Of a DNA stretch of 64,000 nt, positions 34,852 through 57,641 are shown in pieces (position 1 is the stretch's first letter; every line of letters starts with the position of its first letter). The notes under the pieces are model-generated. The model made no database searches. It was given only the letters and a program-made list of their open reading frames with translations, and had not been told where the DNA came from. Where the stretch lies: assembly GCA_037443365.1 (NCBI GenBank), contig JBBIOM010000003.1, positions 1 through 64,000 of the forward strand, given 5' to 3'. The stretch is from Armatimonadota bacterium (lineage in GTDB: Bacteria; Sysuimicrobiota; Sysuimicrobiia; Sysuimicrobiales; Humicultoraceae). A program made the translations under genes and the position numbers.

Positions 34852-34854
34852 GAC

Positions 34855-36189: not shown

Positions 36190-36221
36190 GCCTGATTCCC
36201 CCAAGTTCCGCAGGAGGCACC

Positions 36222-37994
36222 ATGGCGGTCCACGGCGAGATACACCGCAGCACGTACTTCGATTCCGTCGCCCTGATGCTGGCGCAGCGCGAGGCGCGCG
36301 ATCTGCCCGGAGTGGAGGAAGTGGGCGTCGTCATGGCGACGGACGCCAACAAGGAGATCCTGCGCGCCGGGGGTCTTGAGTTCCCGGCCCTGGCCGGGGC
36401 GCGCCCGGACGACCTCGTGGTTGTCGCCCGGGCTGCTTCCGAGGCCGAGGCGCGGGCGGCCGTCGCCTTTGCCATCCGGGCGCTCACCAGCCGCCGCGCG
36501 CAGGGGGTGGGAGACGCCTACCGCCCCAAGTCGGTCGCCTCGGCCTCGCGCCTTGCTCCCGAGGCCACGATCGCCTTGATATCGGTTCCGGGGCGGTTCG
36601 CACACTCGGTGGCGCGCGAGGCGCTCGATGCCGGATTGCACGTCCTGCTCTTCTCGGACAACGTGCCCATCGAGCACGAGATAGCCCTGAAGGCGCGCGC
36701 TCGTGAGCGCGGGCTGCTCGTGATGGGTCCGGACTGCGGCACCGCGATGATTGGGGGCGGGGCGCTCGGCTTTGCCAACCGCGTGCGCGCGGGGCGCATC
36801 GGCCTGGTCGGCGCGGCCGGCACCGGGCTGCAGGAGGTCGCCTCTCTGATCCACGGGTTTGGTGGCGGGATCACGCACGCGATCGGCACCGGCGGGCGCG
36901 ATCTCGCCTCGGCCGTCGGCGGCGTGACGATGCTGGCCGGCCTGCGGGCGCTGGCCCTCGATCCCGCGACCGAGGTGATCGTCCTGGTGAGCAAGCCGCC
37001 CGCGCCGGAGGTCGCCGGCAAGATCCTGGCCGCGGCCGCTGCGTGCGGCAAGCCGGTGGTTGCCTCTTTCGTCGGTGCTGTGGTGCAGCCAGCAGGGCGG
37101 GTCTGCGGCGCCTCGACCCTCGAGGAGGCTGCGCGCCTCGCGGTGCAGCAGGCCTACGGCGCCGGGGCCGCGCCGCCGCCCATGCCGCACCTGCCGGGGC
37201 AGGAGGTGGAGCGGCTCGCCGCGGGGCAGAGGTACGTGCGCGGTCTTTACAGCGGCGGCACGCTCTGCTATGAGGCGCTGGTGCTGCTGCGGGAGAGCCT
37301 GGGCCCGGTCTACTCCAACTCGCCGGTGGATCCCTCCCTGGCGCTCGAGCCGGTGACGCGCAGCCGCGAGCACTCCGTCATTGACATGGGCGGGGACGAG
37401 TTCACGCAGGGCCGTCTCCACCCGATGCTCGACCCCACCCTGCGTCTTGCGCGCCTGCGGCAGGAGGCCGCCGACCCGCAGGTCGCGGTCATACTGCTGG
37501 ACGTGGTGCTGGGCTACGCTGCCCACCCTGACCCCGCCGGAGCGCTCGCGCCCGTGATAAGGGAGGTCCGCGCGCGTGCATCGAGTGAGGGACGGCACCT
37601 CATCGTCGCAGGATCGGTCTGCGGCACGGATGAAGACCCTCAGGACGCGCCCGCGCAGCGCGCGGCGCTGGTCGAGGCGGGGATGCTGGTGGCAGAGAGC
37701 AACGCCCGCGCGGTTCACCTCGCGCGTATGGCTGTCGGGCGACAGCGGTCAAGCGAGCCCTCTTCTGCTTCTACGAGTGATGTCGTCGCCGCTGCAGCGG
37801 CGACGACGGCGTGGCCCGACGTGGGTCCGATCACCGCGATGCTCAAGGCGCGTCCCTCGGTCATCAACGTCGGGCTCGAGTTGTTCGCCGAGAGCCTGCG
37901 GGCGCAGGGGGTGCCGGTTGTATCCGTGGACTGGCAGCCGCCGGCCGGAGGAAAGCGGCACCTGCTGGACCTGCTGGACAAACTGGAGGGGTAG
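36222..37994 (+). CDS. fdrA: FdrA (AllF-like; oxamate transcarbamylase subunit family)
   Basis: YFDSVALM, ISVPG, FSDNV, VMGPDCGT, GTGGRDL, GLYSGGTLC, HPMLD and the C-terminal INVGL..VDWQPPAGG tail. Confidence 0.9.
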   Translation: MAVHGEIHRSTYFDSVALMLAQREARDLPGVEEVGVVMATDANKEILRAGGLEFPALAGARPDDLVVVARAASEAEARAAVAFAIRALTSRRAQGVGDAYRPKSVASASRLAPEATIALISVPGRFAHSVAREALDAGLHVLLFSDNVPIEHEIALKARARERGLLVMGPDCGTAMIGGGALGFANRVRAGRIGLVGAAGTGLQEVASLIHGFGGGITHAIGTGGRDLASAVGGVTMLAGLRALALDPATEVIVLVSKPPAPEVAGKILAAAAACGKPVVASFVGAVVQPAGRVCGASTLEEAARLAVQQAYGAGAAPPPMPHLPGQEVERLAAGQRYVRGLYSGGTLCYEALVLLRESLGPVYSNSPVDPSLALEPVTRSREHSVIDMGGDEFTQGRLHPMLDPTLRLARLRQEAADPQVAVILLDVVLGYAAHPDPAGALAPVIREVRARASSEGRHLIVAGSVCGTDEDPQDAPAQRAALVEAGMLVAESNARAVHLARMAVGRQRSSEPSSASTSDVVAAAAATTAWPDVGPITAMLKARPSVINVGLELFAESLRAQGVPVVSVDWQPPAGGKRHLLDLLDKLEG

Positions 37995-37998
37995 CATA

Positions 37999-39237
37999 GT
38001 GGACATCAACGCCGCGAATCAGGAAGCCCTGGGACGCGTCCTCGCTGCGCAGCCGGTCCTGGCGGGGGTCGGGCGCGCGCTCGATCTCATCCCCGGCATG
38101 ACCCCGGATCTCATCCTGCACGCGGGTCCGCCCATCTCCTGGGAGCGCATGTCCGGCCCGCTGCGCGGCGCCGTGATAGGCGGGCTCATCTTCGAGGGAC
38201 GGGCGCGCACCGAGGACGAGGCGGTTGCGCTTGCTGCGTCGGGAGGGGTGCGCTTCGAGCCGTGCCATCACCACGCCGCCGTGGGGCCCATGGCCGGCGT
38301 GACCACCGCCTCCATGCGGGTCTACATCATCGAGAACCGCGCGGCGGGCAACCGGGCCTTCTCCAACTTCAACGAGGGATACGGCAAGGTGCTGCGCTAC
38401 GGCGCATTCAGCGAGGACGTCCTGGCGCGGTTGCGGTGGGTAAACGAGGTCCTGGCGCCGTCCGTCGGCGATGCCCTCGAGCGCGCGGGCGGCCTCGACA
38501 TGAAGGCGCTGATCGCGCAGCAACTGACAATGGGCGATGAGGGCCACAACCGCAATCGGGCGGGATCGGCCATGTTTGGCCGCCTGCTCGCCCCGCACCT
38601 CGCACGGGGCGGCCTCCCGGCGGAGGTGCTCGAGCAGGTGCTGCGCTACTTCGCCGACAACGACCTGGCGGTGCTCAACCCGGTGATGGCCGCGTGCAAG
38701 GCCACGATGGACGCCGCGTGCGGGATCGCCGGCAGCACGGTCGTCACCTGCATGGCGCGCAACGGCACCGACTTCGGGATCCGGGTCTCGGGCCTGGGCG
38801 ACCGATGGTTCGTCGCCCCGGCCGCGGTCCCGGTGGGGCTCTACTTCCCCGGGTTTGCGGCCCACGACGCCAACCCCGACATAGGCGACTCGACGATCAC
38901 CGAGACCGCGGGCATCGGTGCATTCGCCATGGCCGCGGCCCCTGCCATCGTGAAGTTCGTGGGCGGCACGCCGGCCGAGGCCACGGCCGCGACGCTGGAG
39001 ATGTACGAGATCACCGTCGGCGAGAACCCGGCCTTCGGGCTGCCGCCGCTGGACTTCCGTGGGACCCCGACCGGGGTAGACATCCGCAAGGTCGTGCGCA
39101 CCGGCATCACCCCGCGCATCAACACCGGCATAGCGCACAGGATGCCGGGCGTCGGCCAGGTGGGCGCCGGGCTCGTGCGCCCGCCCATGGCGTGCTTCGA
39201 ACAGGCCCTGGAGGCAATGGCTGAACTGGCGACCTAA
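37999..39237 (+). CDS. ylbE: DUF1116 protein (YlbE/AllG-like)
   Basis: LHAGPP, PCHHHAAVGPMAG, MGDEGHNRN, ARNG, DIGDSTITET, INTGIAH; GTG start at 37999. Confidence 0.9.
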   Translation: MDINAANQEALGRVLAAQPVLAGVGRALDLIPGMTPDLILHAGPPISWERMSGPLRGAVIGGLIFEGRARTEDEAVALAASGGVRFEPCHHHAAVGPMAGVTTASMRVYIIENRAAGNRAFSNFNEGYGKVLRYGAFSEDVLARLRWVNEVLAPSVGDALERAGGLDMKALIAQQLTMGDEGHNRNRAGSAMFGRLLAPHLARGGLPAEVLEQVLRYFADNDLAVLNPVMAACKATMDAACGIAGSTVVTCMARNGTDFGIRVSGLGDRWFVAPAAVPVGLYFPGFAAHDANPDIGDSTITETAGIGAFAMAAAPAIVKFVGGTPAEATAATLEMYEITVGENPAFGLPPLDFRGTPTGVDIRKVVRTGITPRINTGIAHRMPGVGQVGAGLVRPPMACFEQALEAMAELAT

Positions 39238-39280
39238 AAGAGGGCTTCCAAGGCGGACATCTCAAGGAGGTGTGCCTGGA

Positions 39281-39739
39281 ATGAGGGTGGAGGCAAGGCT
39301 CGCCGAGATGGGACTCGAGCTTCCCAGCGCGCCCAAGCCTGTTGCGAACTACGTCCGCACGGTGCGTGCCGGGAACCTGCTGTTCGTGTCGGGGCACGGC
39401 CCGTACCGCGACGGGAAACTGCAGTTCCTCGGCAAGGTCGGCGTGGACCTGACCGTGGAAGAGGGCTACCAGGCCGCCCGGCTGGTGGCGCTCAACTGCC
39501 TGGCCTCCGTGAAGGAGGCACTGGGCGACCTCGACCGCGTCAAGCGCGTGGTGAAGCTGCTGGGCATGGTCAACTGCCCGCCCGAGTTCGGGGGGCAACC
39601 CGAGGTGATCAACGGCGCCTCGGACCTGCTGGTGGAGCTCTACGGCGACGCCGGGCGCCACGCCCGGTCGGCGGTTGGGATGAGCGCGCTCCCGCGGGGC
39701 ATCGCGGTGGAGATCGAGATGGTCTTGGAAGTCGAGTAG
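39281..39739 (+). CDS. RidA/YjgF family protein
   Basis: PVANYV, FVSGH, GRHARSAVG, VEIE. Confidence 0.9.
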   Translation: MRVEARLAEMGLELPSAPKPVANYVRTVRAGNLLFVSGHGPYRDGKLQFLGKVGVDLTVEEGYQAARLVALNCLASVKEALGDLDRVKRVVKLLGMVNCPPEFGGQPEVINGASDLLVELYGDAGRHARSAVGMSALPRGIAVEIEMVLEVE

Positions 39740-39808
39740 GTCCTGGCCTCCCCGCCGCCGAAGAACCCCACGACGGAGCACGCTCGAACACCAGACGGAG
39801 GTGGACGG

Positions 39809-40639
39809 ATGAAGCCGTTTGACCTGTCAAGGGCACGGGTTCTGGATCTCTCGCAGAACTTCAGCGTGGACTCGCCGCCATTCGCCTACTACGAGGGGCC
39901 CACGATCAAGTGGGTGAAGAAGATGGCCTTCGAGGGCGTGAACGCGCAGCACATCAGCAGCACCAACCACATCGCCACCCACCTCGACGCGCCGCTGCAC
40001 TTCAACGATCCCGGGCCCGACGTGGCAGGGATCCCGATCGGCGACCTCGTCGGCCCGGCGTGCATCGTGGACCTGCAGCAGTTCGGGATCGGCGACTACG
40101 ATATCTACGGACCGCGGCACTTCGAGGAGTGGGAGAAGAAGCACAAGACGAAGATCGAGCGCGGCGACATCCTGGTGATTCACACGGGCTATCACGCCTA
40201 CTACAACGAGGACTGGTCGGAGAACACGAGGAAGCAGCATCCCGACGCCCGGCCCGACCTTCCCAGGGCGTTCCTGCGCCATCCCGGCCCGCAGGCCGAG
40301 TTCTGCGACTGGGTGCTCGACCGCGGCATCCGGTGGATGGCGGTTGACGCCATCTCGACTGACCACCCCTTCAACACCAAGGTGCGCGACGCCCGCCGCG
40401 ACCTGATTCCCGAGGTGGAGGCCAAGATCGGCATGACCATGGACCAGGCGTTTCCCTGGCCGAAGGACTACCAGGCCACGCACACCCGGCTCTTCCCCAA
40501 GGGCGTGTTCCACATCGAGAACGTGGGCGGGGACGTTGACCTGGTCCTGAACAAGCGCGTGTGGATAGGCTGCTTCCCGTTCCGGTTCAAGGGCGGCGAG
40601 GCGGCGTTCTGCCGGTTCGTGGCGTTCGTGGAGGCATGA
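39809..40639 (+). CDS. Cyclase family metal-dependent hydrolase (kynurenine formamidase/isatin hydrolase-like)
   Basis: HIATHLDAPLH, VDAISTD, H..LF, IEN. Confidence 0.88.
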   Translation: MKPFDLSRARVLDLSQNFSVDSPPFAYYEGPTIKWVKKMAFEGVNAQHISSTNHIATHLDAPLHFNDPGPDVAGIPIGDLVGPACIVDLQQFGIGDYDIYGPRHFEEWEKKHKTKIERGDILVIHTGYHAYYNEDWSENTRKQHPDARPDLPRAFLRHPGPQAEFCDWVLDRGIRWMAVDAISTDHPFNTKVRDARRDLIPEVEAKIGMTMDQAFPWPKDYQATHTRLFPKGVFHIENVGGDVDLVLNKRVWIGCFPFRFKGGEAAFCRFVAFVEA

Positions 40640-41844
40640 CGGCCGAACCGGGAGGCGCGGTGGCGCCTCTCGACGGTCTCCTCGTACTAGACCTGACCCG
40701 GGCCCTCGCGGGCCCGTACTGCACCCTCATGCTGGCGGACATGGGGGCCCGGGTCATCAAGGTCGAGACCCCCGACGGCGGAGATGACACGCGCGGCTGG
40801 GGGCCGCCGTTCATCCAGGGCGAGAGCACATACTTCCTGTGCATCAACCGCAACAAGGAGAGCCTGACCCTCAACCTCAAGCACCCCGACGCGCAGCGGG
40901 CTCTCTGGAGGCTCATCGAGCGCGCCGACGTGCTGGTTGAGAACTTCCGGCCGGGCGTGATGGAACGCCTCGGCTTCGGCTACGATGCTGTGCACGAGGC
41001 CAACCCCCGCCTTATCTACGCGTCGGTCTCCGGGTTCGGGCAGGACGGCCCGTACCGCGAGCGCGTGGCCTACGATCTGATCCTGCAGGGCATGGGCGGG
41101 TTGATGGGGACGACCGGCGAGGAGGGCGGCCCGCCCGTCAAGATTGGGGTGGCGGTCACCGACATCGCGGCCGGCATGTTCGCGGCGTACGGCGTTGTCG
41201 TGGCGCTGCAGGCGCGGGCCCGCACCGGCGTGGGGCAGCTGGTGGACGCCTCGATGCTCGACAGCCAGGTCGCCTGGATGACCTATCAGGCCGGCGCGTA
41301 CTTCGCGACAGGGGAGAACCCGAAGCGGCTGGGCACCGCGCATCCCTCGCTGGTGCCTTATCAATCGTTCGCGACAAGCGACGGATACGTGAACCTGGCG
41401 GTGGGCAGCGAGGCCATCTGGGGGCGGTTCGTCGTGGCCGTGGACGCGCCGCACCTGGCCGACGACCCCCGGTTTCGCACCAACGCCGACCGAGTCCGCC
41501 ATCGCGATGAGCTCATCGCCTTGCTGGAGCCGGTCCTTGCGCAAAGGACGATGGCCGAATGGTCGGCCGTCTTCGAATCGGCCGGCGTGCCGGCGGGCCC
41601 GATCTACCAGATGTCCGACCTGTTCGGCGACCCCCAGGTGCGCCACCGACGGCTGGTTGTTGAGATGGAGCATCCCAAGGCCGGCCTGATCAGGCAGACC
41701 GGTGTTCCCGTCAAGCTCTCGGCGACCCCGGGGCGCGTTGCCTCGCCGCCGCCGCTGCTGGGGCAGCACACGGATGCGATTCTGCAGGAGCTCGGCTACG
41801 ACGCCGATGCGATTGGAGGCATGCGCCGCGCTGGCGCGATCTGA
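40636..41844 (+). CDS. Class III CoA-transferase (CaiB/BaiF)
   Basis: DLTRALAGP, NRNKES, ENFRPG, SGFGQDGP, catalytic TD, PPLLGQHT. Confidence 0.92.
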   Translation: MTAEPGGAVAPLDGLLVLDLTRALAGPYCTLMLADMGARVIKVETPDGGDDTRGWGPPFIQGESTYFLCINRNKESLTLNLKHPDAQRALWRLIERADVLVENFRPGVMERLGFGYDAVHEANPRLIYASVSGFGQDGPYRERVAYDLILQGMGGLMGTTGEEGGPPVKIGVAVTDIAAGMFAAYGVVVALQARARTGVGQLVDASMLDSQVAWMTYQAGAYFATGENPKRLGTAHPSLVPYQSFATSDGYVNLAVGSEAIWGRFVVAVDAPHLADDPRFRTNADRVRHRDELIALLEPVLAQRTMAEWSAVFESAGVPAGPIYQMSDLFGDPQVRHRRLVVEMEHPKAGLIRQTGVPVKLSATPGRVASPPPLLGQHTDAILQELGYDADAIGGMRRAGAI

Positions 41845-41868
41845 GACCCGGAGTCGGGAGGCACTGCC

Positions 41869-43629
41869 ATGCCTGAAGCCGAACGCTGCCCGGAGTGCCA
41901 GACCCAGACCCCGCGCGGCACACTGCGGGCCGGACTCTGGATCTGCCCTTCGTGCGGGTGGCATCTTTCCATGCCGGCCCGCGACCGCATCGAATCCCTG
42001 GCCGATCCGCGGACATTCAGGGAGCTCGCCCGGGGCCTGGTGTCGGTGGACCCGCTCAAGTTCACGGACCAGCACGCCTACCGGGCGCGGCTGCTCGACG
42101 CGCGCAGGCAGACCGGGCTGCGCGAGGCCGTGGTGACGGGCACCGCCCGGATAGACGGGCTGCCGGTGGTCCTCGCCGTGTTCGACTTCGCGTTTCTCGG
42201 CGGGACCATGGGCTCGGCGGTGGGCGAGAAGATCGCCGACGCGTTCGAGGTCGCCACGCGGCGCAGGTGGCCGGTTGTCACGGTCACCTCCAGCGGCGGC
42301 GCCCGGATGCAGGAAGGGATGCTCTCGCTGATGCAGATGGCCAAGACCGCGGCGGCGCGAGGGCGCCATCACGCCGCGGGATTGGCGCACATCTCGGTGC
42401 TCGCCCACCCGACCTTCGGGGGCGTGGCCGCGAGCTTCGCCTCCCTGGGCGACGTGCTGGTCGCCGAGCCAGGGGCGCACATCGGGTTCATCGGGCCGCG
42501 CGTCATCGAGGCGACCATCGGCGAGACCCTGCCGCCGGGTTCGCACCGCGCCGAGCGGCTCTTCGCCGGCGGCATGGTGGACATGCTGGTCAGCCGGCGC
42601 GCATTGCGCGAGGCGGTATCGGGCCTTGTGCGCCACCTGAGGCGCCCCGCGCGGGCGCGCAGGGCCGCCAATGCGCCGCCTGCCCGCGCGGCCTCAATCG
42701 CGCCGGAGCGTTCGGCATGGGAGATCGTGCAGATCGCGCGGCGGCCCGACCGGCCGACCGCGCTCCTCTACATCCAGAAGCTGATCTCGCGGTTCGTAGA
42801 GCTGCACGGCGATCGCCAGTTCGGCGACGACCCGGCCACCGTTGGCGGGATCGGCGAGTTCGACGGCCAGACCGTGGTCGTGGTCGGTCAGGAGCGCGGC
42901 GCCACGCAGGAGGAGGCAGGCGCGCGCCACCGGGGCATGGCCCGCCCTGAGGGGTACCGCGAGGCGCTACGCCTGATGAACCTGGCCGCCAAGTTCCGCC
43001 TGCCGCTCGTGACCCTCATTGACACCCCGGGCGCCTACCCGGGATACGAATCCGAGCAGAGGGGGATCGCGCAGGCGCTGGCGCACGACCTGCAGGCGAT
43101 GGCGCTCCTGCCCACACCGGTCGTGGCGGTGGTCATCGGTGAGGGCGGGAGCGGAGGCGCCCTGGCCCTGGCCGTGGGCGATCGCGTGATGATGCTGGAG
43201 AACGCGTACTTCTCGGTCATCTCGCCCGAGGGTGCCGCGGCCATCCTCTACCGTGACGTCGCGCGCGCCGAGGATCTCGCGGCCGCGCTCAAGATGACCG
43301 CATCCGACCTGCTGAGGCTGGGCGTCATTGACGAGATCGTGCCCGAGCCGGCGGGCGGCGCACACGTGGATCCGGATGCCGCGGCCGAGTCGGTGCGCCG
43401 CCACCTGCGCGCGGCGCTGGGGTCGCTCTGTCCTCAATCCCCGGAGAAGCTGCTGCACCGGCGTTACCGCAAGTACCGGCAGATCGGGCGCGTGGGCGCC
43501 TACTGGCGAGAGGTGGTGCTTGGGGAGGTAGCGGACGCGCTGGAGACGCTCGAGCGCCGGATGCCGCGCCGCAGGAGCGCCGCGCGGCCGGACCAGGCGT
43601 CCGCGGAGGCCGGGCGACGGCCCGGCTGA
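41869..43629 (+). CDS. accD/accA: Fused AccD-AccA carboxyltransferase (beta+alpha)
   Basis: CPEC..CPSC zinc finger, GGTMG, SGGARMQEG; then ELHGDR, IDTPGAYPG, GEGGSGGALA. Confidence 0.9.
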   Translation: MPEAERCPECQTQTPRGTLRAGLWICPSCGWHLSMPARDRIESLADPRTFRELARGLVSVDPLKFTDQHAYRARLLDARRQTGLREAVVTGTARIDGLPVVLAVFDFAFLGGTMGSAVGEKIADAFEVATRRRWPVVTVTSSGGARMQEGMLSLMQMAKTAAARGRHHAAGLAHISVLAHPTFGGVAASFASLGDVLVAEPGAHIGFIGPRVIEATIGETLPPGSHRAERLFAGGMVDMLVSRRALREAVSGLVRHLRRPARARRAANAPPARAASIAPERSAWEIVQIARRPDRPTALLYIQKLISRFVELHGDRQFGDDPATVGGIGEFDGQTVVVVGQERGATQEEAGARHRGMARPEGYREALRLMNLAAKFRLPLVTLIDTPGAYPGYESEQRGIAQALAHDLQAMALLPTPVVAVVIGEGGSGGALALAVGDRVMMLENAYFSVISPEGAAAILYRDVARAEDLAAALKMTASDLLRLGVIDEIVPEPAGGAHVDPDAAAESVRRHLRAALGSLCPQSPEKLLHRRYRKYRQIGRVGAYWREVVLGEVADALETLERRMPRRRSAARPDQASAEAGRRPG

Positions 43630-43786
43630 GGACCCGGCAGGGAACTAGCAGACAGCGTCGAACGGTTCGGCGATCCCGGAAGGCGGCAGATAGGCACAAG
43701 CACGCGACCGGGGCGTCACTTGGTGGAGAGGGGGTGGAAGCGAAAGTCAGGATGGGCGGATTCTGACCACGAAGGGAGGCGGATGA

Positions 43787-45208
43787 GTGGCAACAGAGGT
43801 TAAGAGGGGAGAGTTGATCTACTCTGTCGACGACATCCCGCAACCGTTCAGCAGGGCCTTCTTCCTGGGTGTTCAGCACGTCCTGACAATGTTTGGCGCA
43901 ACGGTCTCGGTCCCGCTCCTCCTGGGGCCGGCCATGGGGATGACCCAGGCACAGATCGCGACGCTGGTCGGATCTGTCATGCTCGCTTCCGGGGTTGTCA
44001 CCCTGCTCCAGGTGCACTGGGGGTCCCGGCTGCCCATCGTGCAGGGAGTCTCGTTCTCGTTCCTCGGTCCGTTCTTCGCCATCATCGGCGCTCACAAGGC
44101 GCACGGTGGCCCGGTCGTCATGCAGTACATCGCCGGCGCCATCATGACCGGCAGCTTCGTCGAGATGGCGGTCGGTCACTTCCGCTGGATCGGCAAGCTG
44201 CGCCGCGTGATCAGCCCCGTGGTGATCGGCCCGGTCATCATGCTGATAGGCCTGGCCCTGTTCAAGGTCGGTGCCCCCAAGGCGGGCGCCTACTGGCCGA
44301 TGGCCGCGCTCGTCATCTTCTGCATATTCTGGTTCTCACAGTTCCTCTCGCGCGGCAGCCTCGTCTTCCGGTTGTTCCCCATCCTGCTGGCCGTCGCCGT
44401 CGGGTGGGTGGTGTCGTACTTCTTCAGCGCGATCGGCACCTTCGGCCCCAACCATCCCTCCTACGTGGGCCTGCAGGTGGTGCGGGAGGCAGCGTGGTTC
44501 CGGCCGCCTTGGGGAGAGGGCATCGGCTGGATCTTCCCGTGGGGTCTTCCCAAGTTCAGCCTGGCCTTCTTCCTTGCGATCCTGGCCGGCTATCTCGCCT
44601 CCATGATCGAGTCGTTTGGTGACTACCACTCGGTCTCGTACATGAGCCGGCTCCCGGACCCCAGCGAGGACACGATCAACAAGGGGATCCGCGCCGAGGG
44701 CGTGGGGTGCTTCTTCACCGGCCTGTTCGGTGGATTCGCCAGCACGAGCTACTCCGAGAACATCGGGCTGATCGGGATAACGCGGGTCGCCAGCCGCTAC
44801 GTGGTGACCATCGGCTCCTTCGTCCTGATCTTCCTGGGTGTCTTCGGCAAGTTCGGCGCACTCGCCGCGACGCTACCCGGGCCTGTGGTGGGCGCGATGT
44901 ACTGCGCGCTCTTCGGGCTCATCGCGGCCATCGGCGTGCAGCAGGTGGCGCGCTGCGATCTTCGCAGCGACCGCAACCTGCTGATCATCGGGTTCTCCCT
45001 CTTCATGGGCCTGAGCCTCCCGGCGTACTTCACGGGCGTTCCGGAGCTCGAGTTCGCGGCCCAGAAGGTCGTCATCACCTGGGCGCCCTGGCTCGCCGAC
45101 ATGATCAACATCGTCGGGTCCACGGGCATGGCGGTTGCCGCGATATTCGGGCTTGTCCTGGACAACCTGCTGCCAGGGACTCTGGAGGAGCGGGGAATCA
45201 GGAGCTAG
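43787..45208 (+). CDS. NCS2 nucleobase:cation symporter (uracil/xanthine permease family)
   Basis: QH motif in TM1, GSRLPIVQG, ESFGD, TSYSENIG..TRVASR signature. Confidence 0.92.
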   Translation: MATEVKRGELIYSVDDIPQPFSRAFFLGVQHVLTMFGATVSVPLLLGPAMGMTQAQIATLVGSVMLASGVVTLLQVHWGSRLPIVQGVSFSFLGPFFAIIGAHKAHGGPVVMQYIAGAIMTGSFVEMAVGHFRWIGKLRRVISPVVIGPVIMLIGLALFKVGAPKAGAYWPMAALVIFCIFWFSQFLSRGSLVFRLFPILLAVAVGWVVSYFFSAIGTFGPNHPSYVGLQVVREAAWFRPPWGEGIGWIFPWGLPKFSLAFFLAILAGYLASMIESFGDYHSVSYMSRLPDPSEDTINKGIRAEGVGCFFTGLFGGFASTSYSENIGLIGITRVASRYVVTIGSFVLIFLGVFGKFGALAATLPGPVVGAMYCALFGLIAAIGVQQVARCDLRSDRNLLIIGFSLFMGLSLPAYFTGVPELEFAAQKVVITWAPWLADMINIVGSTGMAVAAIFGLVLDNLLPGTLEERGIRS

Positions 45209-45246
45209 GCGTGATCGAGCCGGGAAAGTGCCCGGCGCAGTGCACG

Positions 45247-45280
45247 TCGCGGGGGCTGCCCTCTTGGGGAGCCCCCGCGA
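45247..45280. terminator. Hairpin between the convergent NCS2 and katG genes
   Basis: TCGCGGGGGCT...AGCCCCCGCGA, perfect 11-bp arms. Confidence 0.5.
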
Positions 45281-45460
45281 ATCCTTCCAGCCAGCCCGGC
45301 GGCGTGCTTTGGATTGCCCTCATTGGCGAGCCGTCCTCGCTTGTTCTCCGCTGGGCCACAGCACTGATTGCTCAGCCCATCACTCACCGCATCCGTGCGG
45401 GCCTGCCATGGACAGCAGGCTCCACCCACTTGGGAGCCCCTGAATGTGCTTACGCCATGG

Positions 45461-48167
<2,707 letters not shown>

Positions 48168-48225
48168 GCGCACCCCCTTGCGCTCTGCAGGCTTCACGCC
48201 GTGGAAGCCCCCTGCCCTCAGGTAT

Positions 48226-48246
48226 CCATATTCATAATGAGTATGG
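48226..48246. promoter_or_regulatory. AT-rich palindrome CCATATTCATAATGAGTATGG, putative Fur/PerR operator
   Basis: 10-1-10 inverted repeat with one mismatch, about 60 nt upstream of the fur-katG start. Confidence 0.7.
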
Positions 48247-48282
48247 TTTTCTGGATCAGCATGCCAGATCGTCGCGGTCCCG

Positions 48283-49155
48283 TCAAGAGTGTGACGCCGG
48301 TCCGCGCTGCAGTGCCACCACCGAGGCCAGGATGAGTAGCGCGCCGGCGATCGCACGCCCCGCAAGCGCTTCTCCCAGCAGCGCCGCCGCGAACACCGCG
48401 GCAACCGCCGGCTCGACAGTCGCGGTCAGGCTGGCGGACCGGCTATCGATGAAGCGCAATCCGTAGAGGAACAGGGCGAACGGCAGCACGGTAGCGAACA
48501 CCACAATGAAGAGGAGCAAGCCCCACTCGCCCGGTGTGAACGGAAGCAGGTATACACGCCAGGGCGGCGTGTGTAGGCTCCAGAGGATCGAACCCACCAG
48601 CAACCCGTAGAACAGCATGTGCCACGGATCCACGGTGCGGGCACGTGAGCGTCCCATCAGGATCCAGCCCGCGAAGCCTAGCGCCGAGGCGATCCCTGAC
48701 GCGACCGCGGCTGGCGAGACAGCGAGCCCGTGCGATCCCGCCACGAGCAAGTAGCCGCCAGCGATCACGCCCGCGAGGCAGGCCGCCTGCATTGCGTGTA
48801 GGCGTTCGCGGTGCACCACGGCCGTGTAGGCAACCACCAGCGCTGGCGCCGTGTACTGCAGAAAGATTGCCGTCGCAACATCGGCCAGGCTGATGGTCAG
48901 GTAGTACATCGACTGGGAAACGACCATTGCGACGCCCAGGGGGATCAACCGGAGCACCACGACCCACGGTAACCTCACCGAGCGCCCCTGTGCCCACAAC
49001 GCAGTCGCGGTCAGCACCAGGCCCGCGGTCACGCGTATCTCGACCACCGCCGCGGGAGTGATCGTCCCGCGGTTGAACAGGGCCTTGGCCACCACACCGG
49101 CGATGCCCCACAATGAGGCCGCGGCAAGCACGGCCGCGTATCCCCGCAGGCGCAT
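48283..49155 (-). CDS. EamA/DMT family transporter
   Basis: About 10 TM segments, LQYTAP, TVEP. Confidence 0.9.
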   Translation of the reverse strand: MRLRGYAAVLAAASLWGIAGVVAKALFNRGTITPAAVVEIRVTAGLVLTATALWAQGRSVRLPWVVVLRLIPLGVAMVVSQSMYYLTISLADVATAIFLQYTAPALVVAYTAVVHRERLHAMQAACLAGVIAGGYLLVAGSHGLAVSPAAVASGIASALGFAGWILMGRSRARTVDPWHMLFYGLLVGSILWSLHTPPWRVYLLPFTPGEWGLLLFIVVFATVLPFALFLYGLRFIDSRSASLTATVEPAVAAVFAAALLGEALAGRAIAGALLILASVVALQRGPASHS

Positions 49156-50052
49156 CTAGGGCTCGACCCTGTCCCAGGCCCAGCAGAAGCCGGTCAGGGC
49201 GTCGGCGCCCGAGGTTTCGCCGATACCCAGTATCCGCCGCGCGGCCGCGCGTGCGGCGCCGGGTCCCTCACCGATCCCGCGCGCAAGCCCATGCCAGGGC
49301 GCCGAGCCCCAGCCCTGGCGAGCGGCTTCCAGGTAGGCCGCGCTGATGCGGGTGGTGCGCGGGATCGCGGCGCCGACCAGTGTGTCTCTGGCCTGAGACA
49401 CCCCACCGGCCGCGCTAGCCAGGGAGGGCCACAGCGTAAGCGCGTGAACGATTCCCACGAGGAGGTCGTCCCCTGCCGGGGTCAACCCAGGCCCTCGCCC
49501 GGCCATGCGGGAGGCCACCGCGCCGGCAACCGCCCGCGCGCTGCTCTTCCCAGAAAGGAACGCGGCGATGGCTTCTAAACCGGATGACAGTTCCGGCAGG
49601 ATGCCCCCCTGGGCGCCCAGGTTCGATCGAGGCGCGTCGGAGCCAAGTTCCGCACGGACCGCGGCACGCGCGCACTTCACCAGCCCCGGCGCGAGGTCCT
49701 GGCGCAGGGGAGGAAGGGCCGGATCCCAGACGCGCGCGCTCCCAAGATCCACCGCGCCCTGTCCGATCCGCAGCCTGCCGTCCCCCAGCGAGACCGGTTC
49801 GCCTGGGGCGATCGGACCCAGCGATGAGAATCCATCCACACCGATCGTGAACGGCGCTGGCTCGAGATCACTCGATGTCAGCGCGAGGATTCGGCCGTCC
49901 AGATCCAGGTAGGCGCTCCGCTCGAACGCGGCCAACACTACTCCGGCCGCGCTGGACGCCCGGAGGCCCTCCAGCGGCGCGGCGATGAGCCCGGCACGAA
50001 TTGCGCGGGTGGCTGCGATGTGCGCAACGACGGGCGATCGTGATGGGGTCAT
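49156..50052 (-). CDS. ylbF: DUF2877 protein (YlbF/AllH-like)
   Basis: GRGPGLTPAGDDLLVG, TTRIS, GETSGAD; ATGA overlap with coxS. Confidence 0.85.
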   Translation of the reverse strand: MTPSRSPVVAHIAATRAIRAGLIAAPLEGLRASSAAGVVLAAFERSAYLDLDGRILALTSSDLEPAPFTIGVDGFSSLGPIAPGEPVSLGDGRLRIGQGAVDLGSARVWDPALPPLRQDLAPGLVKCARAAVRAELGSDAPRSNLGAQGGILPELSSGLEAIAAFLSGKSSARAVAGAVASRMAGRGPGLTPAGDDLLVGIVHALTLWPSLASAAGGVSQARDTLVGAAIPRTTRISAAYLEAARQGWGSAPWHGLARGIGEGPGAARAAARRILGIGETSGADALTGFCWAWDRVEP

Positions 50053-50585
50053 TCCACTCCTGTGGCCTTCACCGCCTCCACGATCGCCGCGTATCCCGTG
50101 CACCGGCACAGATGCCCGCCGAGCACTTCTCGTATGGCCGCATCGGAAGGCCGGGGTGTGCTTTGCAGGAGCGCGTGCATGCTCATAAGTACCCCGGGTG
50201 TGCAGAACCCGCACTGCAGCGCGTGGTGTTGCGCAAACGACTGCTGCAGGGGGGAAAGCGCGTTGGGCTCGCCCAGCGCCTCGACCGTGGTGACCTCAGC
50301 GCCGTCGGCCTGCACCGCGAACAGCAGGCACGACCTGACCGGCGCTCCATCCAGCAGCACTGTGCAGGCCCCGCAGACGCCGTGCTCGCACCCCAGGTGC
50401 GTCCCGGTCAGGCCCAGATCCTCGCGCAGGAAGTCGGCCAGGGTGCGCCGCACCTCCACCGTCCTTGAGACCTCGCTTCCGTTGACGCGTAGCCGGATCG
50501 TTGCCTGGCCGGCCGGTGCCCTGCGCCGCGCGCGGGGCCGCGTCTTGCGAGGGGTGGTGATTCCTTCAGAGGGGTTGCTGCTCAT
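50049..50585 (-). CDS. Molybdenum hydroxylase 2Fe-2S subunit
   Basis: [25 protein letters not shown]. Confidence 0.93.
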   Translation of the reverse strand: MSSNPSEGITTPRKTRPRARRRAPAGQATIRLRVNGSEVSRTVEVRRTLADFLREDLGLTGTHLGCEHGVCGACTVLLDGAPVRSCLLFAVQADGAEVTTVEALGEPNALSPLQQSFAQHHALQCGFCTPGVLMSMHALLQSTPRPSDAAIREVLGGHLCRCTGYAAIVEAVKATGVE

Positions 50586-51460
50586 CGTCGTTGCTCCCGG
50601 ATACGCCCGGCTGCCTGCATGATGGCCCGGCCTGCCAGCACGCCGGCGACATGTCGCCTGTAGGCCGCAGTCGCGTGTATGTCAGAGGGAGGATCGAGCC
50701 GGTGCTGCGCCGCGCGCATCGCCTCGGCCACGCTTGCTTCGGTAACCTCCTTGCCCAGGAGCGCCTGCTCGGCCTCGGGCACGCGGACCGGCCCCGGCCC
50801 CACTCCTGTGAAGACGAGGCGGGCGCTGCTACACCGCCGGTCGCCGTCCTGCTCCAGGACTGCGGCCACGCCCGCAAGGGCGAAGTCACCGTGTCGCCTG
50901 GCGATCTCGAGAAAGGCCCACCCCGCGCCCGGCGTGAGCGCGGGCAGGCGCACCTCGGTCAGCAATTCGTCGGGTTCCAGGGCGGTGGTCAGATAGCCCG
51001 CGAAGAACTGCTCGCAGTCAAGCACACGTTCCCCGCGTACGCTGGCAAGCACGAAGCGCGCGTCCAGGGCCGCCGCCGCGGCGGGCAACTCCGAGGAGGG
51101 GTCGGCGTGCGCCAGGCTTCCGCCGATCGTGCCGCGCGCGCGGATCTGCGGGTGTCCGATGCATCGCGTGGCCTCGGCCAGCAGGGGGATCCGCCGGGCG
51201 ACGCCGCGGTGGGTCTCCACCGTCTGCTGGCGCGTCATCGCGCCGATCGCAAGCCCCCCTTCGAAGGGGCGGATGAAGGCCAGGTCCCTTATCCGGTTCA
51301 GATCCACGATCACCGCCGGGCGCGCCAGGCGCATCGCCAGCAGCGGCACAAGGCTCTGCCCGCCTGCCAGCGCCTTTGCTTCTGTGCCGAACTCGGCCAG
51401 GGCCTCCAGCGCCTCCAGGCGTCGCCGGGGCGCCAGGTACTCGAAGGGTCCGGGCTTCAC
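50582..51460 (-). CDS. Molybdenum hydroxylase FAD subunit
   Basis: AGGQSL, RARGTIGGSLAHADP, RRHGDFA. Confidence 0.93.
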   Translation of the reverse strand: MKPGPFEYLAPRRRLEALEALAEFGTEAKALAGGQSLVPLLAMRLARPAVIVDLNRIRDLAFIRPFEGGLAIGAMTRQQTVETHRGVARRIPLLAEATRCIGHPQIRARGTIGGSLAHADPSSELPAAAAALDARFVLASVRGERVLDCEQFFAGYLTTALEPDELLTEVRLPALTPGAGWAFLEIARRHGDFALAGVAAVLEQDGDRRCSSARLVFTGVGPGPVRVPEAEQALLGKEVTEASVAEAMRAAQHRLDPPSDIHATAAYRRHVAGVLAGRAIMQAAGRIREQRR

Positions 51461-53805
51461 GATGGCACGCTCCGATCTCCTGCCTGGGAGCCTGTTTCCT
51501 GCAGCAACTCCAGCAATCGCGTGTGCGAAAGGGGCATCTGGGCCACTCGCGTCCCCAGCGCATCGTCCAGGGCCGAGGCGAACACCGCTGTCGCCGGGAT
51601 CACGCCGGCCTCGCCGGCGCCCTTCACGCCCAGCGGGTTAAGCGGGGAAGGGGTCTCCACGTGCCCTATCTCGGCCTTCGGGACCTCGGCCGCGGTCGGC
51701 AGCAGGTAGTCCATGAAGGTCTGCGTCAGGAGCTGGCCGTCCTCGTCATACACCAGGGCCTCGTAGAAGGCGCCGCCGATGCCCTGGGCCACGCCGCCCT
51801 GGATCTGCCCGTCCAGGATCATCGGGTTGATCACGGTGCCGCAGTCGTGGACGACAACGTACCGCTCGACGCGCACCGCTCCCGTATCCCTGTCGACCTC
51901 AAGGATCGCGGCGTGACACCCGCCGGCGAAGCTGCCCCGCGGCGGCGCGAAGTAGCGCGCGGCCTCCAGCCCCGGTCCTTCCCATTCCTTCGGGATGGTT
52001 CCGCGGAGCGGGTTGGCGGCCGTCGCGACCTCGCCCAGCGTAACCGATCGCGCAGGGGCTCCGCGCACGAAGATCTTCCCATCGGCAATCTCGAGGTCGT
52101 CGGGCCCCGCTTCCAGCAACCCCGAGGCAACCATGAGCGTCTTCTCGCGCACGGCCCTGGCCGCCAGCGCCACCGCGCTGCCCGCCACGACCGCAGAGCG
52201 GCTCGCGAATGTTCCGGTGCCCCACCCGAAGGCCGCGGTGTCGCCTGTAGTGACGGTGACGTCGCGCACATCCACGCCCAGGGCGTCCGCGATTATCTGC
52301 GCGAACACGGTGAAGTGCCCCTGGCCCTGTGTGCCTACGCTCGTGGCCGCGAACACCTTGCCCGTTGACTCGACCGTGACGCGGCACCCCTCGTACGGGC
52401 CGATGCCGGTGCCCTCCACGTAGAGCGCCAGCCCCAGCCCAAGGGTGCGGCCTGCCCTGCGCGCCGCGGCCTGGCGCTCTGGCCAACCCGCGTAGTCAAT
52501 CATCTCGAGGGTCTTGTCGAGCACGGCCGGGTAGTTGCCGCTGTCGTAGATGAGCGGCGCGTTGTCCTGGTAGATCAGCCCGGTATCGTAGGGGAACTCA
52601 TGCGGCTGGATCAGGTTGCGGCGGCGCACCTCCGCGCGGTCTATGCCCAGTTCGCGCGCCACCCGGTCCATCAGGCGCTCCATGATGAAGACGCCGTGAG
52701 GCCGCCCGGCCCCGCGGTAGGGGCTCACCTGGGTCTTGTTAGTGAATACCGCCCGGAACTCGCAGTGGTAGTTGGGGATCTTGTACGGGCCAACCAGGGT
52801 GGTGCTGGCGACGATGGGTACGATCAGGCCGTAGGCGATGTAGGCGCCGGCGTCGTGCAGGAAGACCGTTCGTACGCCCAGGATCCGGCCCTCGCCGTCC
52901 ACGGCGATCTGTACGTCGTGGATCTGCTCGCGCTCCTGGTTCGTGGCCACGAAGTTCTCACGCCTGTCCTCGATCCACTTGACGGGCCGGCCCAGGCGCA
53001 TCGCGGCAAGCGGCACCAGGATCTCCTCGGGGTAGAACATCATTATCTTGGGCCCGAACCCACCGCCCACGTCGGGCGCAACCACGCGCACGTTGTTCTG
53101 GGGCAGGCCGAACAGCCGCGCCAGCCCGTTGCGTATCGGGATGGGCGACTGCGTCGAGTCGTAGATGACCAGATTGCGCAGGCGCCCGTCCCATATCGCC
53201 AGGATCCCGCGCGTCTCCATGGAGGCGGCCGTGCCGCGGTCCATGCGGATCCTCTCGGAGAAGACGTGCGGGGCACACGCGAAGGCACCCTCGGGGTCGC
53301 CCACCCGCTGGGTGTAGTGCGCGGCCACGTTGGTCCCGGCGTCCTCGTGGACCAGCGGGCTCTCGGGCCTGATGGCGGCCTCGAGGTCCACAACGGCCGG
53401 AAGCGGCTCGTACTCCACCTCGATGGCCTCCAGGGCGTCCTCGGCCAGGTAGCGGCTCTCGGCCACCACGAACGCCACGGGCTCGCCGACATGGCGGACG
53501 ACCTCCCCGGCCAGGGCGACCTGGGTCTTGTGGTGGATCAGTGTCGGGTGGGGAATGAGCCTAGGCAGCGGATCCCCGAGCGGCGGCGGGAGGTCGGCGC
53601 GCGTGTAGACCGCGACGACCCCGGGGATAGCCCGGGCACCGGAGGCGTCAATGCGCACGATCCTGGCGCGGGCGTGCGGACTTCGGAGCACCGCCCCGTG
53701 CAGCAGGTTGGGCGGCTGGATGTCGTCCACGAAGGTGCCCCTGCCCGTCAGCAGCCGGGGGTCCTCGACCCTCCGGACGCGCTCGCCGAACCACCGCGTC
53801 CCCAT
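51457..53805 (-). CDS. Xanthine-dehydrogenase-family molybdopterin subunit (CoxL form II-like)
   Basis: RRVEDPRLL, GGGFGPK, PYRGAGRP, QGQGH, GQIQGG, KGAGE; start MGTRWFG. Confidence 0.92.
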   Translation of the reverse strand: MGTRWFGERVRRVEDPRLLTGRGTFVDDIQPPNLLHGAVLRSPHARARIVRIDASGARAIPGVVAVYTRADLPPPLGDPLPRLIPHPTLIHHKTQVALAGEVVRHVGEPVAFVVAESRYLAEDALEAIEVEYEPLPAVVDLEAAIRPESPLVHEDAGTNVAAHYTQRVGDPEGAFACAPHVFSERIRMDRGTAASMETRGILAIWDGRLRNLVIYDSTQSPIPIRNGLARLFGLPQNNVRVVAPDVGGGFGPKIMMFYPEEILVPLAAMRLGRPVKWIEDRRENFVATNQEREQIHDVQIAVDGEGRILGVRTVFLHDAGAYIAYGLIVPIVASTTLVGPYKIPNYHCEFRAVFTNKTQVSPYRGAGRPHGVFIMERLMDRVARELGIDRAEVRRRNLIQPHEFPYDTGLIYQDNAPLIYDSGNYPAVLDKTLEMIDYAGWPERQAAARRAGRTLGLGLALYVEGTGIGPYEGCRVTVESTGKVFAATSVGTQGQGHFTVFAQIIADALGVDVRDVTVTTGDTAAFGWGTGTFASRSAVVAGSAVALAARAVREKTLMVASGLLEAGPDDLEIADGKIFVRGAPARSVTLGEVATAANPLRGTIPKEWEGPGLEAARYFAPPRGSFAGGCHAAILEVDRDTGAVRVERYVVVHDCGTVINPMILDGQIQGGVAQGIGGAFYEALVYDEDGQLLTQTFMDYLLPTAAEVPKAEIGHVETPSPLNPLGVKGAGEAGVIPATAVFASALDDALGTRVAQMPLSHTRLLELLQETGSQAGDRSVPS

Positions 53806-54661: not shown

Positions 54662-54663
54662 AC

Positions 54664-55599: not shown

Positions 55600-55603
55600 G
55601 CGC

Positions 55604-57567: not shown

Positions 57568-57641
57568 GAAAGATGGCACGGCGGGCGCTGCGGGCTAAGT
57601 GGCCCCCAGCCTCCGCCGGTCTCTCTTCCTGGAGGGCGAAC

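Follow-up and report, generated by a model that had tools for sequence, protein, structure and literature searches.

Oxidative degradation of pyrimidines in Rhodococcus erythropolis reportedly proceeds through uracil/thymine dehydrogenase, barbiturase and ureidomalonase, and is said to end in urea and malonate. In the malonate modules MatABC and Mdc/Mad, malonate is activated as a thioester and an AccA/AccD-type carboxyltransferase removes the carboxyl group. The Escherichia coli allFGHK genes lie beside allECD, and AllF, AllG and AllH are all needed for oxamic transcarbamylase (OXTCase) activity; the reaction was shown on oxalurate and converts an acylurea and phosphate into carbamoyl phosphate and an amide (PMC11326118). 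Members of the AllFGH family occur in nitrifiers alongside biuH/trtA and bmpA-nupABC (PMC12625717). Among CoxL proteins, form I displays the AYxCSFR loop and the gene order coxMSL, while form II has AYRGAGR and coxSLM, and the role of form II is stated to be unclear (PMC13203968). Here we describe a region that combines several of these families, positions 36222-53805 of a 64,000-nucleotide stretch of Armatimonadota DNA (positions 1 to 64,000 of contig JBBIOM010000003.1, assembly GCA_037443365.1), hereafter the window. A first-pass annotation of this DNA had proposed that the region encodes an oxidative pyrimidine pathway running from a nucleobase permease, through a molybdenum (Mo) hydroxylase, a cyclase-family hydrolase and an AllFGH-type transcarbamylase, to a CoA-transferase and a carboxyltransferase, AccDA. 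We consider it probable that the region serves the catabolism of nucleobases or ureides as one unit, in which a Mo-hydroxylase is coupled to an AllFGH-type enzyme. That this island would degrade an imported nucleobase-type ureide, most likely uracil or thymine, is put forward tentatively, while the complete chain, in which AccDA too would take part and which would be a phosphorolytic variant of oxidative pyrimidine degradation, looks improbable.

Pfam and NCBIfam scans of the window (G+C about 69%) recovered every gene named by the first-pass annotation as a strong family match, and the region spans exactly from the allF start to the coxL start. The first operon lies on the + strand and contains allF (36222..37994), encoding an FdrA-like, succinyl-CoA-synthetase-alpha-like subunit (NF004760 539 bits, cut-off 433; domains PF00549 and PF02629); allG (37999..39237), encoding the DUF1116 subunit (PF06545, E 2e-91); an accessory RidA/YjgF-family gene (39272..39739; PF14588, E 5e-30); a gene for a cyclase-family metal-dependent amidohydrolase, hereafter the cyclase (39809..40639; PF04199, E 5e-33); a gene for a family III CoA-transferase of the SUGCT-like, dicarboxylate type (40636..41844; PF02515, E 4e-140); and a gene for a fused AccD-AccA carboxyltransferase (41869..43629; matched by NF004344, TIGR00513 and TIGR00515, with scores given below). 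An NCS2/SLC23-like nucleobase permease gene (43787..45208; PF00860, E 5e-85) follows on the same strand. The second operon is read from the - strand in the order coxL-coxM-coxS-allH-eamA and encodes a molybdopterin subunit with a form-II-like loop (coxL, 51457..53805; PF02738, PF20256 and PF01315), a FAD subunit (coxM, 50582..51460; PF00941 and PF03450), a [2Fe-2S] subunit (coxS, 50049..50585; PF01799 and PF00111), the DUF2877 subunit (allH, 49156..50052; PF11392, E 2e-20) and, as last gene, an EamA/DMT transporter (eamA, 48283..49155; PF00892, E 1e-30).

Start codons were refined to GTG 37999 for allG, where GGAGG precedes the start, ATG 40636 for the CoA-transferase gene and ATG 50052 for allH. 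The genes of the cox operon then overlap by 4 nt at the coxL/coxM, coxM/coxS and coxS/allH junctions, and the eamA ATG abuts the allH stop; on the other strand the cyclase stop and the CoA-transferase start also overlap by 4 nt, while gaps of 4 nt and 24 nt separate allF from allG and the CoA-transferase gene from accDA, respectively. Because of these overlapping or abutting junctions we read the region as two tightly packed operons. A scan of 35800-54800 returned no promoter-like site and 7 terminator-like sites against 6.5 expected, which is uninformative; likewise, no Rfam family reached its gathering score anywhere in the window, and the one hit in 35800-54800 (E 0.29) is at chance level, so that no riboswitch or RNA clue to a ligand was obtained. 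Concerning the genes that the first-pass annotation had listed as missing (allantoinase, AllC, AllD, carbamate kinase, accB and accC), their absence from the window is borne out. No Pfam match to biotin carboxylase, biotin carboxyl carrier protein, allantoinase, AtzD-type hydrolase or amidase-signature enzyme was detected among the large open reading frames of the window that were scanned, and tblastn with a relative's AccC and AccB gave no match in the window at E <= 1e-5.

All three OXTCase subunit families are present, FdrA/AllF, DUF1116/AllG and DUF2877/AllH, and the chemistry is presumably the same acylurea phosphorolysis as in E. coli (PMC11326118). AllF is 39% identical to E. coli FdrA, AllG 50% to YlbE and AllH 34% to YlbF over 101 aa of the C-terminal domain. 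The layout differs from allFGHK, which is a single operon with allK beside allE, allC and allD: here two operons share the genes and allH follows coxS, allK, allB, allC, allD and allE are missing, and the surrounding genes encode a Mo-hydroxylase, a cyclase-family hydrolase, a CoA-transferase and a nucleobase permease. On this gene order, the predicted third AllFGH subunit is made from the Mo-hydroxylase operon, which ties both operons together, and allH is seen as a gene that can be encoded apart from allFG. Since E. coli needs AllF, AllG and AllH together and these are here divided between the operons, the two operons must work together. The AlphaFold2 (AF2) model of AllH (pLDDT 93) has a beta domain and a helical domain; it found no PDB match at E <= 0.001 (best TM about 0.15) and gave no functional hint. 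Two motifs, G-x-G-P-G-L-T-P-x-G-D-D and G-E-T-S-G-x-D, are invariant across 55 DUF2877 sequences.

The AllG family is large, with 3405 representatives at E <= 0.001 and 194 matching records in the plasmid collection. Many of the representatives are about 800-1100 aa long with the AllG match in the C-terminal part, and we take these to be putative AllF-AllG fusions. The two AllG contexts viewed, an enterobacterial plasmid with fdrA-DUF1116-arcC and Peptoclostridium acidaminophilum, showed no Mo-hydroxylase; in the latter, the AllFGH family stands beside xanthine permeases, a cysteine hydrolase and arcC. E. coli K-12 itself carries at 335925-342507 (L093) a second, uncharacterised set consisting of yahE (DUF2877), yahF (FdrA-like), yahG (DUF1116), yahI (carbamate kinase-like) and yahJ (amidohydrolase). 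Given this paralogous yahEFG set, membership of the AllFGH family does not fix the substrate, and at least one further substrate is to be expected for the family.

In order to assess conservation, genomes were scanned with AccDA as query, 10-kb flanks were taken and these were searched by tblastn with the window proteins; the list is not exhaustive, and the loci compared here are among the matches listed. Among these matches, the closest AccDA relatives are proteins of metagenome-assembled genomes (MAGs), 57-89% identical, and those with a named source are labelled Armatimonadota. Conservation was judged on the seven loci (L001-L007) that form a clade with the window in the AccDA tree, in which the window groups with an Armatimonadetes groundwater MAG (L001) and Candidatus Fervidifonticultor of the Sysuimicrobiota/CSP1-3 (L003). 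The CoA-transferase gene stands directly upstream of accDA in six of the seven (L001-L006, not L007). A cyclase gene precedes it in all three loci in which this side is visible and the cluster present (L003, L004 and L006), although in L003 the contig edge leaves only its final 74 residues; the sequences of L001 and L005 do not reach far enough to judge, and L002 has no cyclase. The 4-nt overlap between the cyclase and CoA-transferase genes recurs in L004. Downstream and on the opposite strand, allH-coxS-coxM-coxL is found in L003 and L006, with coxS and allH within about 11 nt of each other, while eamA-allH reaches the contig edge in L004. The allF-allG pair is present in L004 (60% and 76% identical, respectively), a stretch that the L003 and L006 contigs do not reach. 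The L003 CoxS is 80% identical, and eamA orthologues of 48-49% identity follow allH in L004 and L006. Besides, L003 keeps a DUF47 gene and one Pit gene next to coxL, together with coxG, the second coxM, coxD and coxE; L006 keeps coxG. Insertions vary from locus to locus: the window has NCS2, katG and fur, L004 has a Bmp/PnrA-type ABC transporter as well as PEGA and sigma-factor genes, L006 has PEGA/AhpC, and L003 has none. L004 and L006 also carry an SBP_bac_5 ABC transporter and a haloacid-dehalogenase-like (HAD) hydrolase. Among the cluster loci AccDA is 65-68% identical, whereas the cyclase reaches 82-86%.

Seven further contigs probably carry both AccDA and AllH, as the same contig sizes (82993, 212602, 76491, 63618, 28844, 20669 and 20265) occur in both match lists. 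The same comparison by size gave no pairing of the cyclase list with the AccDA or AllH lists; the cyclase is highly conserved, and 90% clusters merge many genomes. As the grouping recurs in related genomes and its junctions overlap by 4 nt or abut, it is more than chance. The idea that these genes form one functional unit, inherent in the first-pass annotation, is borne out by the coupling of allH to coxS, away from allF and allG, and by the recurrence of the layout in L003, L004 and L006. Judged by this comparative evidence, the cluster is a conserved, predicted catabolic island of two operons belonging to a CSP1-3/Armatimonadota-type uncultured soil or groundwater bacterium.

At residues 362-368, CoxL has the loop PYRGAGR where CutL (1ffu) reads AYRCSF and 4zoh reads SYRGAGRP, and the Cu-binding Cys is missing. 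Because PYRGAGR stands in place of AYxCSFR, CoxL is not a Mo-Cu carbon monoxide dehydrogenase (CODH); CoxLMS is, as judged from this loop, a Mo/FAD/FeS hydroxylase of form-II-like type. The loop shares the absence of the Cys with form II CoxL ('putative CODH'), from which it differs by P instead of A as first residue; the order L-M-S, followed by allH and eamA, differs both from coxS-L-M of form II and from coxM-S-L of form I, and NCBIfam places the protein in 'CODH group 5'. Its solved neighbours are about equally close: Mycobacterium smegmatis CoxL (8uem, 4e-162), quinoline 2-oxidoreductase (1t3q, 2e-159) and 6-hydroxypseudooxynicotine dehydrogenase (7dqx, 9e-148). On TIGR02416, CoxL scores 592 bits against a cut-off of 991. 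The coxL frame stays open to 54108 (883 aa) while homology begins at ATG 53805, so that automatic annotation may over-extend the gene.

Several lines of evidence link the cluster to nucleobases. The NCS2 permease carries the motif SENIGLIGITR, which in an alignment with E. coli transporters is of the E-type seen in UraA (GENIGVMAITR) and RutG (AENIGVMAVTK), and unlike XanQ (AQNNGVIQMTG) and UacT (SQNVGLVSVTR). The best cyclase matches in the plasmid collection lie on haloarchaeal megaplasmids, with 38-40% identity and more than 95% coverage, and four such loci were viewed, from Halostagnicola (L081), Halorussus (L084), Haloarcula (L085) and Natronococcus (L086). In two of them (L081 and L086) the cyclase gene is found beside coxM, coxG, coxL and coxS, a dihydropyrimidinase-like amidohydrolase, a mocA-like nucleotidyltransferase, xdhC and IclR. 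NCS2/SLC23 permeases are present in all four, with E-type orthologues 41-45% identical to that of the window (45% for the SLC23-like permease of the Natronococcus cluster) as well as Q-type, pbuX-class members; a CocE/NonD hydrolase also recurs in all four, while a BMP ABC transporter is found once (L084) and a CoA-transferase, 46% identical to ours, once (L086). In the Halostagnicola locus, a cytosine deaminase (459 bits, cut-off 438) and the cytosine permease codB (393 bits, cut-off 326) accompany the cyclase. These clusters thus share with the window the cyclase, an E-type permease, coxS/L/G/M, xdhC and a mocA-like gene, and in L086 also the CoA-transferase, but they lack AllFGH and AccDA and have instead the dihydropyrimidinase-like amidohydrolase, the CocE/NonD hydrolase and IclR. 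The haloarchaeal loci support a predicted association of the cyclase subfamily with Mo-hydroxylases and nucleobase uptake, in one case of pyrimidines. Together with the NCS2 gene here and the Bmp-type ABC transporter in L004, they support the putative link of the whole cluster to nucleobases, which upholds that part of the first-pass annotation. Towards pyrimidines there are hints in the E-type NAT motif and in a negative result, namely that E. coli AllB, AllC, AllD, AllE and AllK gave no tblastn match at E <= 1e-3 in the window, in L001-L007 or in L013, a Chloroflexota locus described below; a normal allantoin pathway is thus not seen nearby.

The cyclase displays the metal motif H-x-x-T-H-x-D-x-P-x-H, and its stretch NHIATHLDAPLHF aligns with the metal motif of 8f9x and of KynB. 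Despite this family motif it is distant from KynB and isatin hydrolase, and it is not a KynB orthologue: the arylformamidase model TIGR03035 gives 38.9 bits against a cut-off of 223, and KynB structures match only at E 3e-7. Its subfamily comprises 253 proteins at E <= 0.001, from sources that include Acidobacteriota, Bacillota, Chloroflexota and Solirubrobacterales. We regard it as the candidate for a ring-opening or amide-hydrolysing step. A homologue on a Rhodococcus ruber plasmid (36% identity) was set aside because its neighbours, Rieske oxygenase and nitrilase-type genes, make up another context. RidA was also considered as RutC, and no meaningful similarity was found (E 0.9).

The proposed sequence of events starts with import by the E-type NCS2 permease, for which the Bmp-type ABC system would stand in relatives. 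CoxLMS would then hydroxylate the ring, and the cyclase would open it or hydrolyse an amide to give an N-acylurea, ureidomalonate if the substrate is uracil. The split enzyme made of AllF-AllG and AllH would phosphorolyse this acylurea to carbamoyl phosphate and an amide, and the remaining C3 acid would be activated by the SUGCT-like CoA-transferase. Since no carbamate kinase gene is linked, the carbamoyl phosphate would feed biosynthesis; and since no allantoin-pathway genes are nearby, the acylurea must come from an imported compound through the Mo enzyme and the hydrolase. It is plausible that this compound is uracil, as the path from uracil by way of barbiturate to ureidomalonate needs just two steps, after which a C3 acid remains that a dicarboxylate CoA-transferase could take; the route also fits the E-type permease, the Halostagnicola cytosine genes, the transporters of nucleoside/nucleobase type and the neighbouring malonyl-CoA enzyme. 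Within the improbable complete version, CoxLMS would be the uracil/thymine dehydrogenase, the cyclase a barbiturase unrelated to AtzD, and the split AllFG/AllH a phosphorylase of ureidomalonate by which the ureido group is conserved in carbamoyl phosphate, while the SUGCT-like CoA-transferase and the cell's AccD-AccA would turn the malonyl unit into acetyl-CoA or feed it into fatty-acid synthesis. Such a pathway would share with that of Rhodococcus a three-subunit Mo/FAD/FeS hydroxylase, ring-opening and ureide-cleaving enzymes and the carbon route to a malonyl unit. It would differ in that the window has neither an AtzD/TrzD-type barbiturase nor an amidase-signature ureidomalonase, which the cyclase-family hydrolase and AllFGH would replace, and in its proposed products, carbamoyl phosphate and malonamate, where Rhodococcus is said to yield urea and malonate.

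A number of observations weigh against the pyrimidine route. The phosphorolytic step turns ureidomalonate into malonamate, for which the conserved core has no amidase; Pfam scans of the large open reading frames of the window brought up no gene of barbiturase or ureidomalonase type, and no carbamate kinase was linked to the cluster by tblastn with AllK, which leaves a gap in the uracil route. Relatives do not retain RidA (no tblastn match in L003, L004 and L006 at 1e-4), the asparaginase or the terminal amidohydrolase. The malonamate scheme of the first-pass annotation is weakened by the missing amidase and by the loss of RidA. Overall, the permease is 30% identical to XanQ/UacT and 27% to UraA/RutG, and its best hidden Markov model is xanthine permease pbuX (256 bits, below cut-off). 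The exception model NF040766 (CODH_aero_grp5) scores CoxL at 1036 bits with a cut-off of 950, a pass that conflicts with the loop; NCBIfam would name the protein an aerobic CO dehydrogenase despite the missing CODH loop. An aldehyde substrate is possible for CoxLMS, since the YRGAGRP loop is common to the archaeal oxidoreductase 4zoh and the glyceraldehyde dehydrogenase model gives 687 bits (cut-off 790). The cytosine genes occur in only one of the four haloarchaeal loci, and the window CoxL is only 33% identical to haloarchaeal CoxL. Furthermore, an S41 peptidase gene ends 32 nt before the allF start and leaves allF no evident room for a promoter. AccDA is where the first-pass idea is weakest.

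Concerning the carbon end of the route, the CoA-transferase has human SUGCT (9br6, 5e-113) as best solved relative, followed by YfdE (6e-87) and Frc. It falls under every NCBIfam equivalog cut-off, with 379 of 750 bits for succinate-glutarate, 325 of 522 for oxalate and 314 of 700 for mesaconate; it belongs to family III with a putative dicarboxylate, SUGCT-like specificity. AccDA passes the AccA equivalogs NF004344 (370.6 bits, cut-off 357) and TIGR00513 (338.4, cut-off 319.3), lies just under the accD cut-off of TIGR00515 (309 against 317.45) and carries an N-terminal Cys4 stretch, CPEC...CPSC, while MdcD/E-type models match weakly (57-65 bits, where Mdc cut-offs are 228-278). Among the matches listed, fused AccD-AccA genes are found in Bacillota, Actinomycetota, Chloroflexota and the Armatimonadota/CSP1-3 group. 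A biotin carboxylase gene stands directly upstream of the fused gene in at least 21 Bacillota-type loci (one of them from a MAG labelled Muribaculum) and just downstream in at least two actinomycete loci; in Lachnospiraceae, homologues 43-45% identical to the window protein are encoded directly behind accC. Given the adjoining biotin carboxylase, the Bacillota-type and actinomycete copies are ordinary acetyl-CoA carboxylase. The window copy has in common with the housekeeping fusions of Bacillota, Chloroflexota and Actinomycetota the same two domains, the N-terminal Cys4 and the passing of accA cut-offs, and differs from them in its position, sixth in an operon of catabolic appearance, with neither accB nor accC in the 64 kb. 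It differs likewise from the malonate modules, as the window has no acyl carrier protein, MdcA or membrane decarboxylase subunit and activation would be carried out by a family III CoA-transferase.

A quick maximum-likelihood AccDA tree (IQ-TREE; 45 rows, after 8 loci with a stop codon in the matched stretch were dropped and loci with only a split accA excluded) recovers phyla as clades. In agreement with this, the Chloroflexota locus L013, which has a CoA-transferase and a Mo-hydroxylase, falls inside the Chloroflexota and not with the window. An OTCase-like gene and a luciferase-like gene of L013 had been considered as a pyrimidine clue; the former is an ordinary ornithine carbamoyltransferase (423 bits, cut-off 306) and the latter is not RutA-like. 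In L002, where the cyclase, cox and AllFGH genes are lacking, the CoA-transferase and accDA genes are lined up with those for a Zn-dehydrogenase, pccB, accC, accB, methylmalonyl-CoA mutase (mcm) and MeaB. As AccDA passes the AccA cut-offs, follows phyla in the tree and occurs with the CoA-transferase outside the cluster, it is probably a housekeeping protein, the lineage's normal acetyl-CoA carboxylase carboxyltransferase. By all these sequence criteria AccDA behaves as a vertically inherited housekeeping gene, which speaks against the chain of reactions that would end in it, as does the lone pair in L002. The first-pass annotation had invoked the pathway as an explanation for the carboxyltransferase, and this is not supported given the AccA scores, the tree, the Lachnospiraceae copies behind accC and the pair standing alone in L002. 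Of its overall idea, the conserved, nucleobase-linked unit is supported and the decarboxylating role of AccDA is weakened. The annotation had named an accDA unlinked in relatives among the grounds against its idea; we find it linked there to the CoA-transferase gene. The simplest reading is that the CoA-transferase and AccDA are an older pair to which the catabolic genes were added. Their adjacency across the phylum is perhaps due to both handling malonyl-CoA, and the pair may make sense if the CoA-transferase makes malonyl-CoA.

Two other readings of the substrate have to be weighed against uracil or thymine, and we hold each of them to be unlikely. In the first, a purine base or another imported compound yields oxalurate, AllFGH acts as in E. 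coli, the CoA-transferase works on oxalate or oxamate, and AccDA is an unrelated housekeeping gene. The resemblance of AllG and AllF to YlbE and FdrA, with AllF passing the FdrA cut-off, speaks for it, as do the pbuX score of the permease and its slightly higher identity to XanQ/UacT, the Q-type pbuX-class permeases in the haloarchaeal loci and the relationship of the CoA-transferase to YfdE and Frc. Against it stands the lack of allantoinase, AllC, AllD, AllE and carbamate kinase in the window, L001-L007 and L013; no family of uricase or oxalyl-CoA decarboxylase type turned up in Pfam scans of the window open reading frames, the cluster's own permease is E-type and its CoA-transferase is nearest to SUGCT, not YfdE/Frc. 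One hydroxylation and one hydrolysis also do not make oxalurate from a purine.

The second, judged to be of the same low probability, keeps the enzyme logic of the uracil route and replaces the substrate by another N-heterocycle or ureide (a hydroxypyrimidine, a hydantoin- or imide-type compound, or a natural product), with a C4-C6 dicarboxylate as substrate of the CoA-transferase, as is the case for SUGCT. The near-equal distance of CoxL to quinoline oxidoreductase and 6-hydroxypseudooxynicotine dehydrogenase would be explained in this way, and the best relatives of the CoA-transferase indeed use succinate, glutarate and hydroxymethylglutarate; the SBP_bac_5 transporter and HAD hydrolase of L004 and L006 and the conserved EamA exporter point in the same direction. 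Against this, AllFGH requires an N-acylurea, so that only ureide rings qualify as substrate; transporters of nucleobase type recur, and cytosine deaminase and codB lie beside the cyclase orthologue in Halostagnicola.

A third explanation, which we find quite improbable, denies a shared pathway and sees inherited synteny: the CoA-transferase and AccDA would be a central acyl-CoA module, CoxLMS a CO or aldehyde dehydrogenase, and AllFG/AllH a separate ureide enzyme. The AccDA tree that follows phyla favours it, and so do L002, which keeps the CoA-transferase and AccDA by pccB-accC-accB-mcm without the rest, and L013, where the AccDA-CoA-transferase pair adjoins a different CoxL (39% identity) with an ordinary argF nearby. 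Besides, CoxLMS was counted as CO oxidation in all CSP1-3 MAGs (PMC11962464), and the NF040766 cut-off is passed. On the other side stand the missing CODH active-site loop, the translational coupling of allH to coxS with its partners allF and allG in the other operon, and the cyclase/CoA-transferase overlap in both the window and L004; the set has moreover stayed together through several insertions and rearrangements, although these loci have only 65-68% identity in AccDA, and the cyclase, Mo-hydroxylase, permease and CoA-transferase occur together across domains in haloarchaea. An aldehyde oxidoreductase, for example one oxidising malonate semialdehyde or another aldehyde acid to a dicarboxylate, whose product would pass through the CoA-transferase and AccDA into malonyl-CoA/acetyl-CoA metabolism, is the least probable of all, for although the loop SPYRGAGRPHG matches SYRGAGRPEG of 4zoh and the glyceraldehyde dehydrogenase models give 687 (alpha), 265 (beta) and 200 (gamma) bits, all these scores are under the equivalog cut-offs, N-heterocycle hydroxylases are equally close, and AllFGH, the cyclase and the nucleobase permeases are left unexplained.

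We found no description of this cluster in the literature searched, and no uracil dehydrogenase gene or reference sequence either; on that basis the island is a new combination of known families. If the uracil or thymine assignment is true, genes would be attached to an old orphan activity, uracil dehydrogenase, and the recently discovered AllFGH transcarbamylase family would act beyond oxalurate. A first physiological role would be given to a clade of form-II-type CoxL, which PMC13203968 describes as unclear in function and which surveys of CSP1-3, an abundant phylum of deep soil, now count towards aerobic CO oxidation (PMC11962464). Use of nucleobases in this manner would spare nitrogen and energy in oligotrophic soils. 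Even on the conservative outcome, the coxL of the window should not count as a CO dehydrogenase.

Beyond coxL and divergent from it lie a DUF47/PhoU_div gene and, in tandem, two genes for PHO4/Pit phosphate transporters (54005..56539, + strand; PF01865, and PF01384 twice). Their products could supply phosphate to a phosphorolytic enzyme, which is an association only. They are followed by coxG, a second coxM, coxD (AAA), coxE (VWA) and an xdhC::mocA fusion (57573..62807, + strand; PF06240, PF00941, AAA, PF05762, and PF02625 with PF13478 and PF12804), which are predicted maturation and cofactor genes for a Mo-hydroxylase; the set has no L or S subunit and its CoxM is about 43% identical to the corresponding CoxM. 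Asparaginase and amidohydrolase genes were also detected by Pfam in these + strand surroundings. Between the NCS2 gene and eamA lie katG (45461..47656, - strand) and a fur/perR-like regulator gene (47703..48167, - strand), both identified in the Pfam/NCBIfam scans and overlooked by the first-pass annotation. This fur and katG insertion (45461-48283, - strand) is absent from L003, L004 and L006, and a 21-nt palindrome, CCATATTCATAATGAGTATGG, in the gap between eamA and fur (48226-48246) resembles a Fur/PerR box. Upstream of allF, 29605-36189 holds a MacA-MacB pair, a gene for a TolC-like outer-membrane factor of an efflux system and the S41 peptidase gene; the efflux set implies a diderm cell envelope. 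Farther away, 960-6828 encodes a 1226-aa protein with a C-terminal MutL domain (PF13941), followed by an octopine-dehydrogenase-like gene and an AAT-family acyltransferase-like gene, and a tungsten-type aldehyde:ferredoxin oxidoreductase is encoded at 8326-10209. Finally, a + strand row at 19850-29152, unrelated to the cluster, contains TetR, a FabH-like ketosynthase, an AMP-dependent ligase, an alpha/beta hydrolase, a five-gene Liv-type ABC transporter and an SDR gene.

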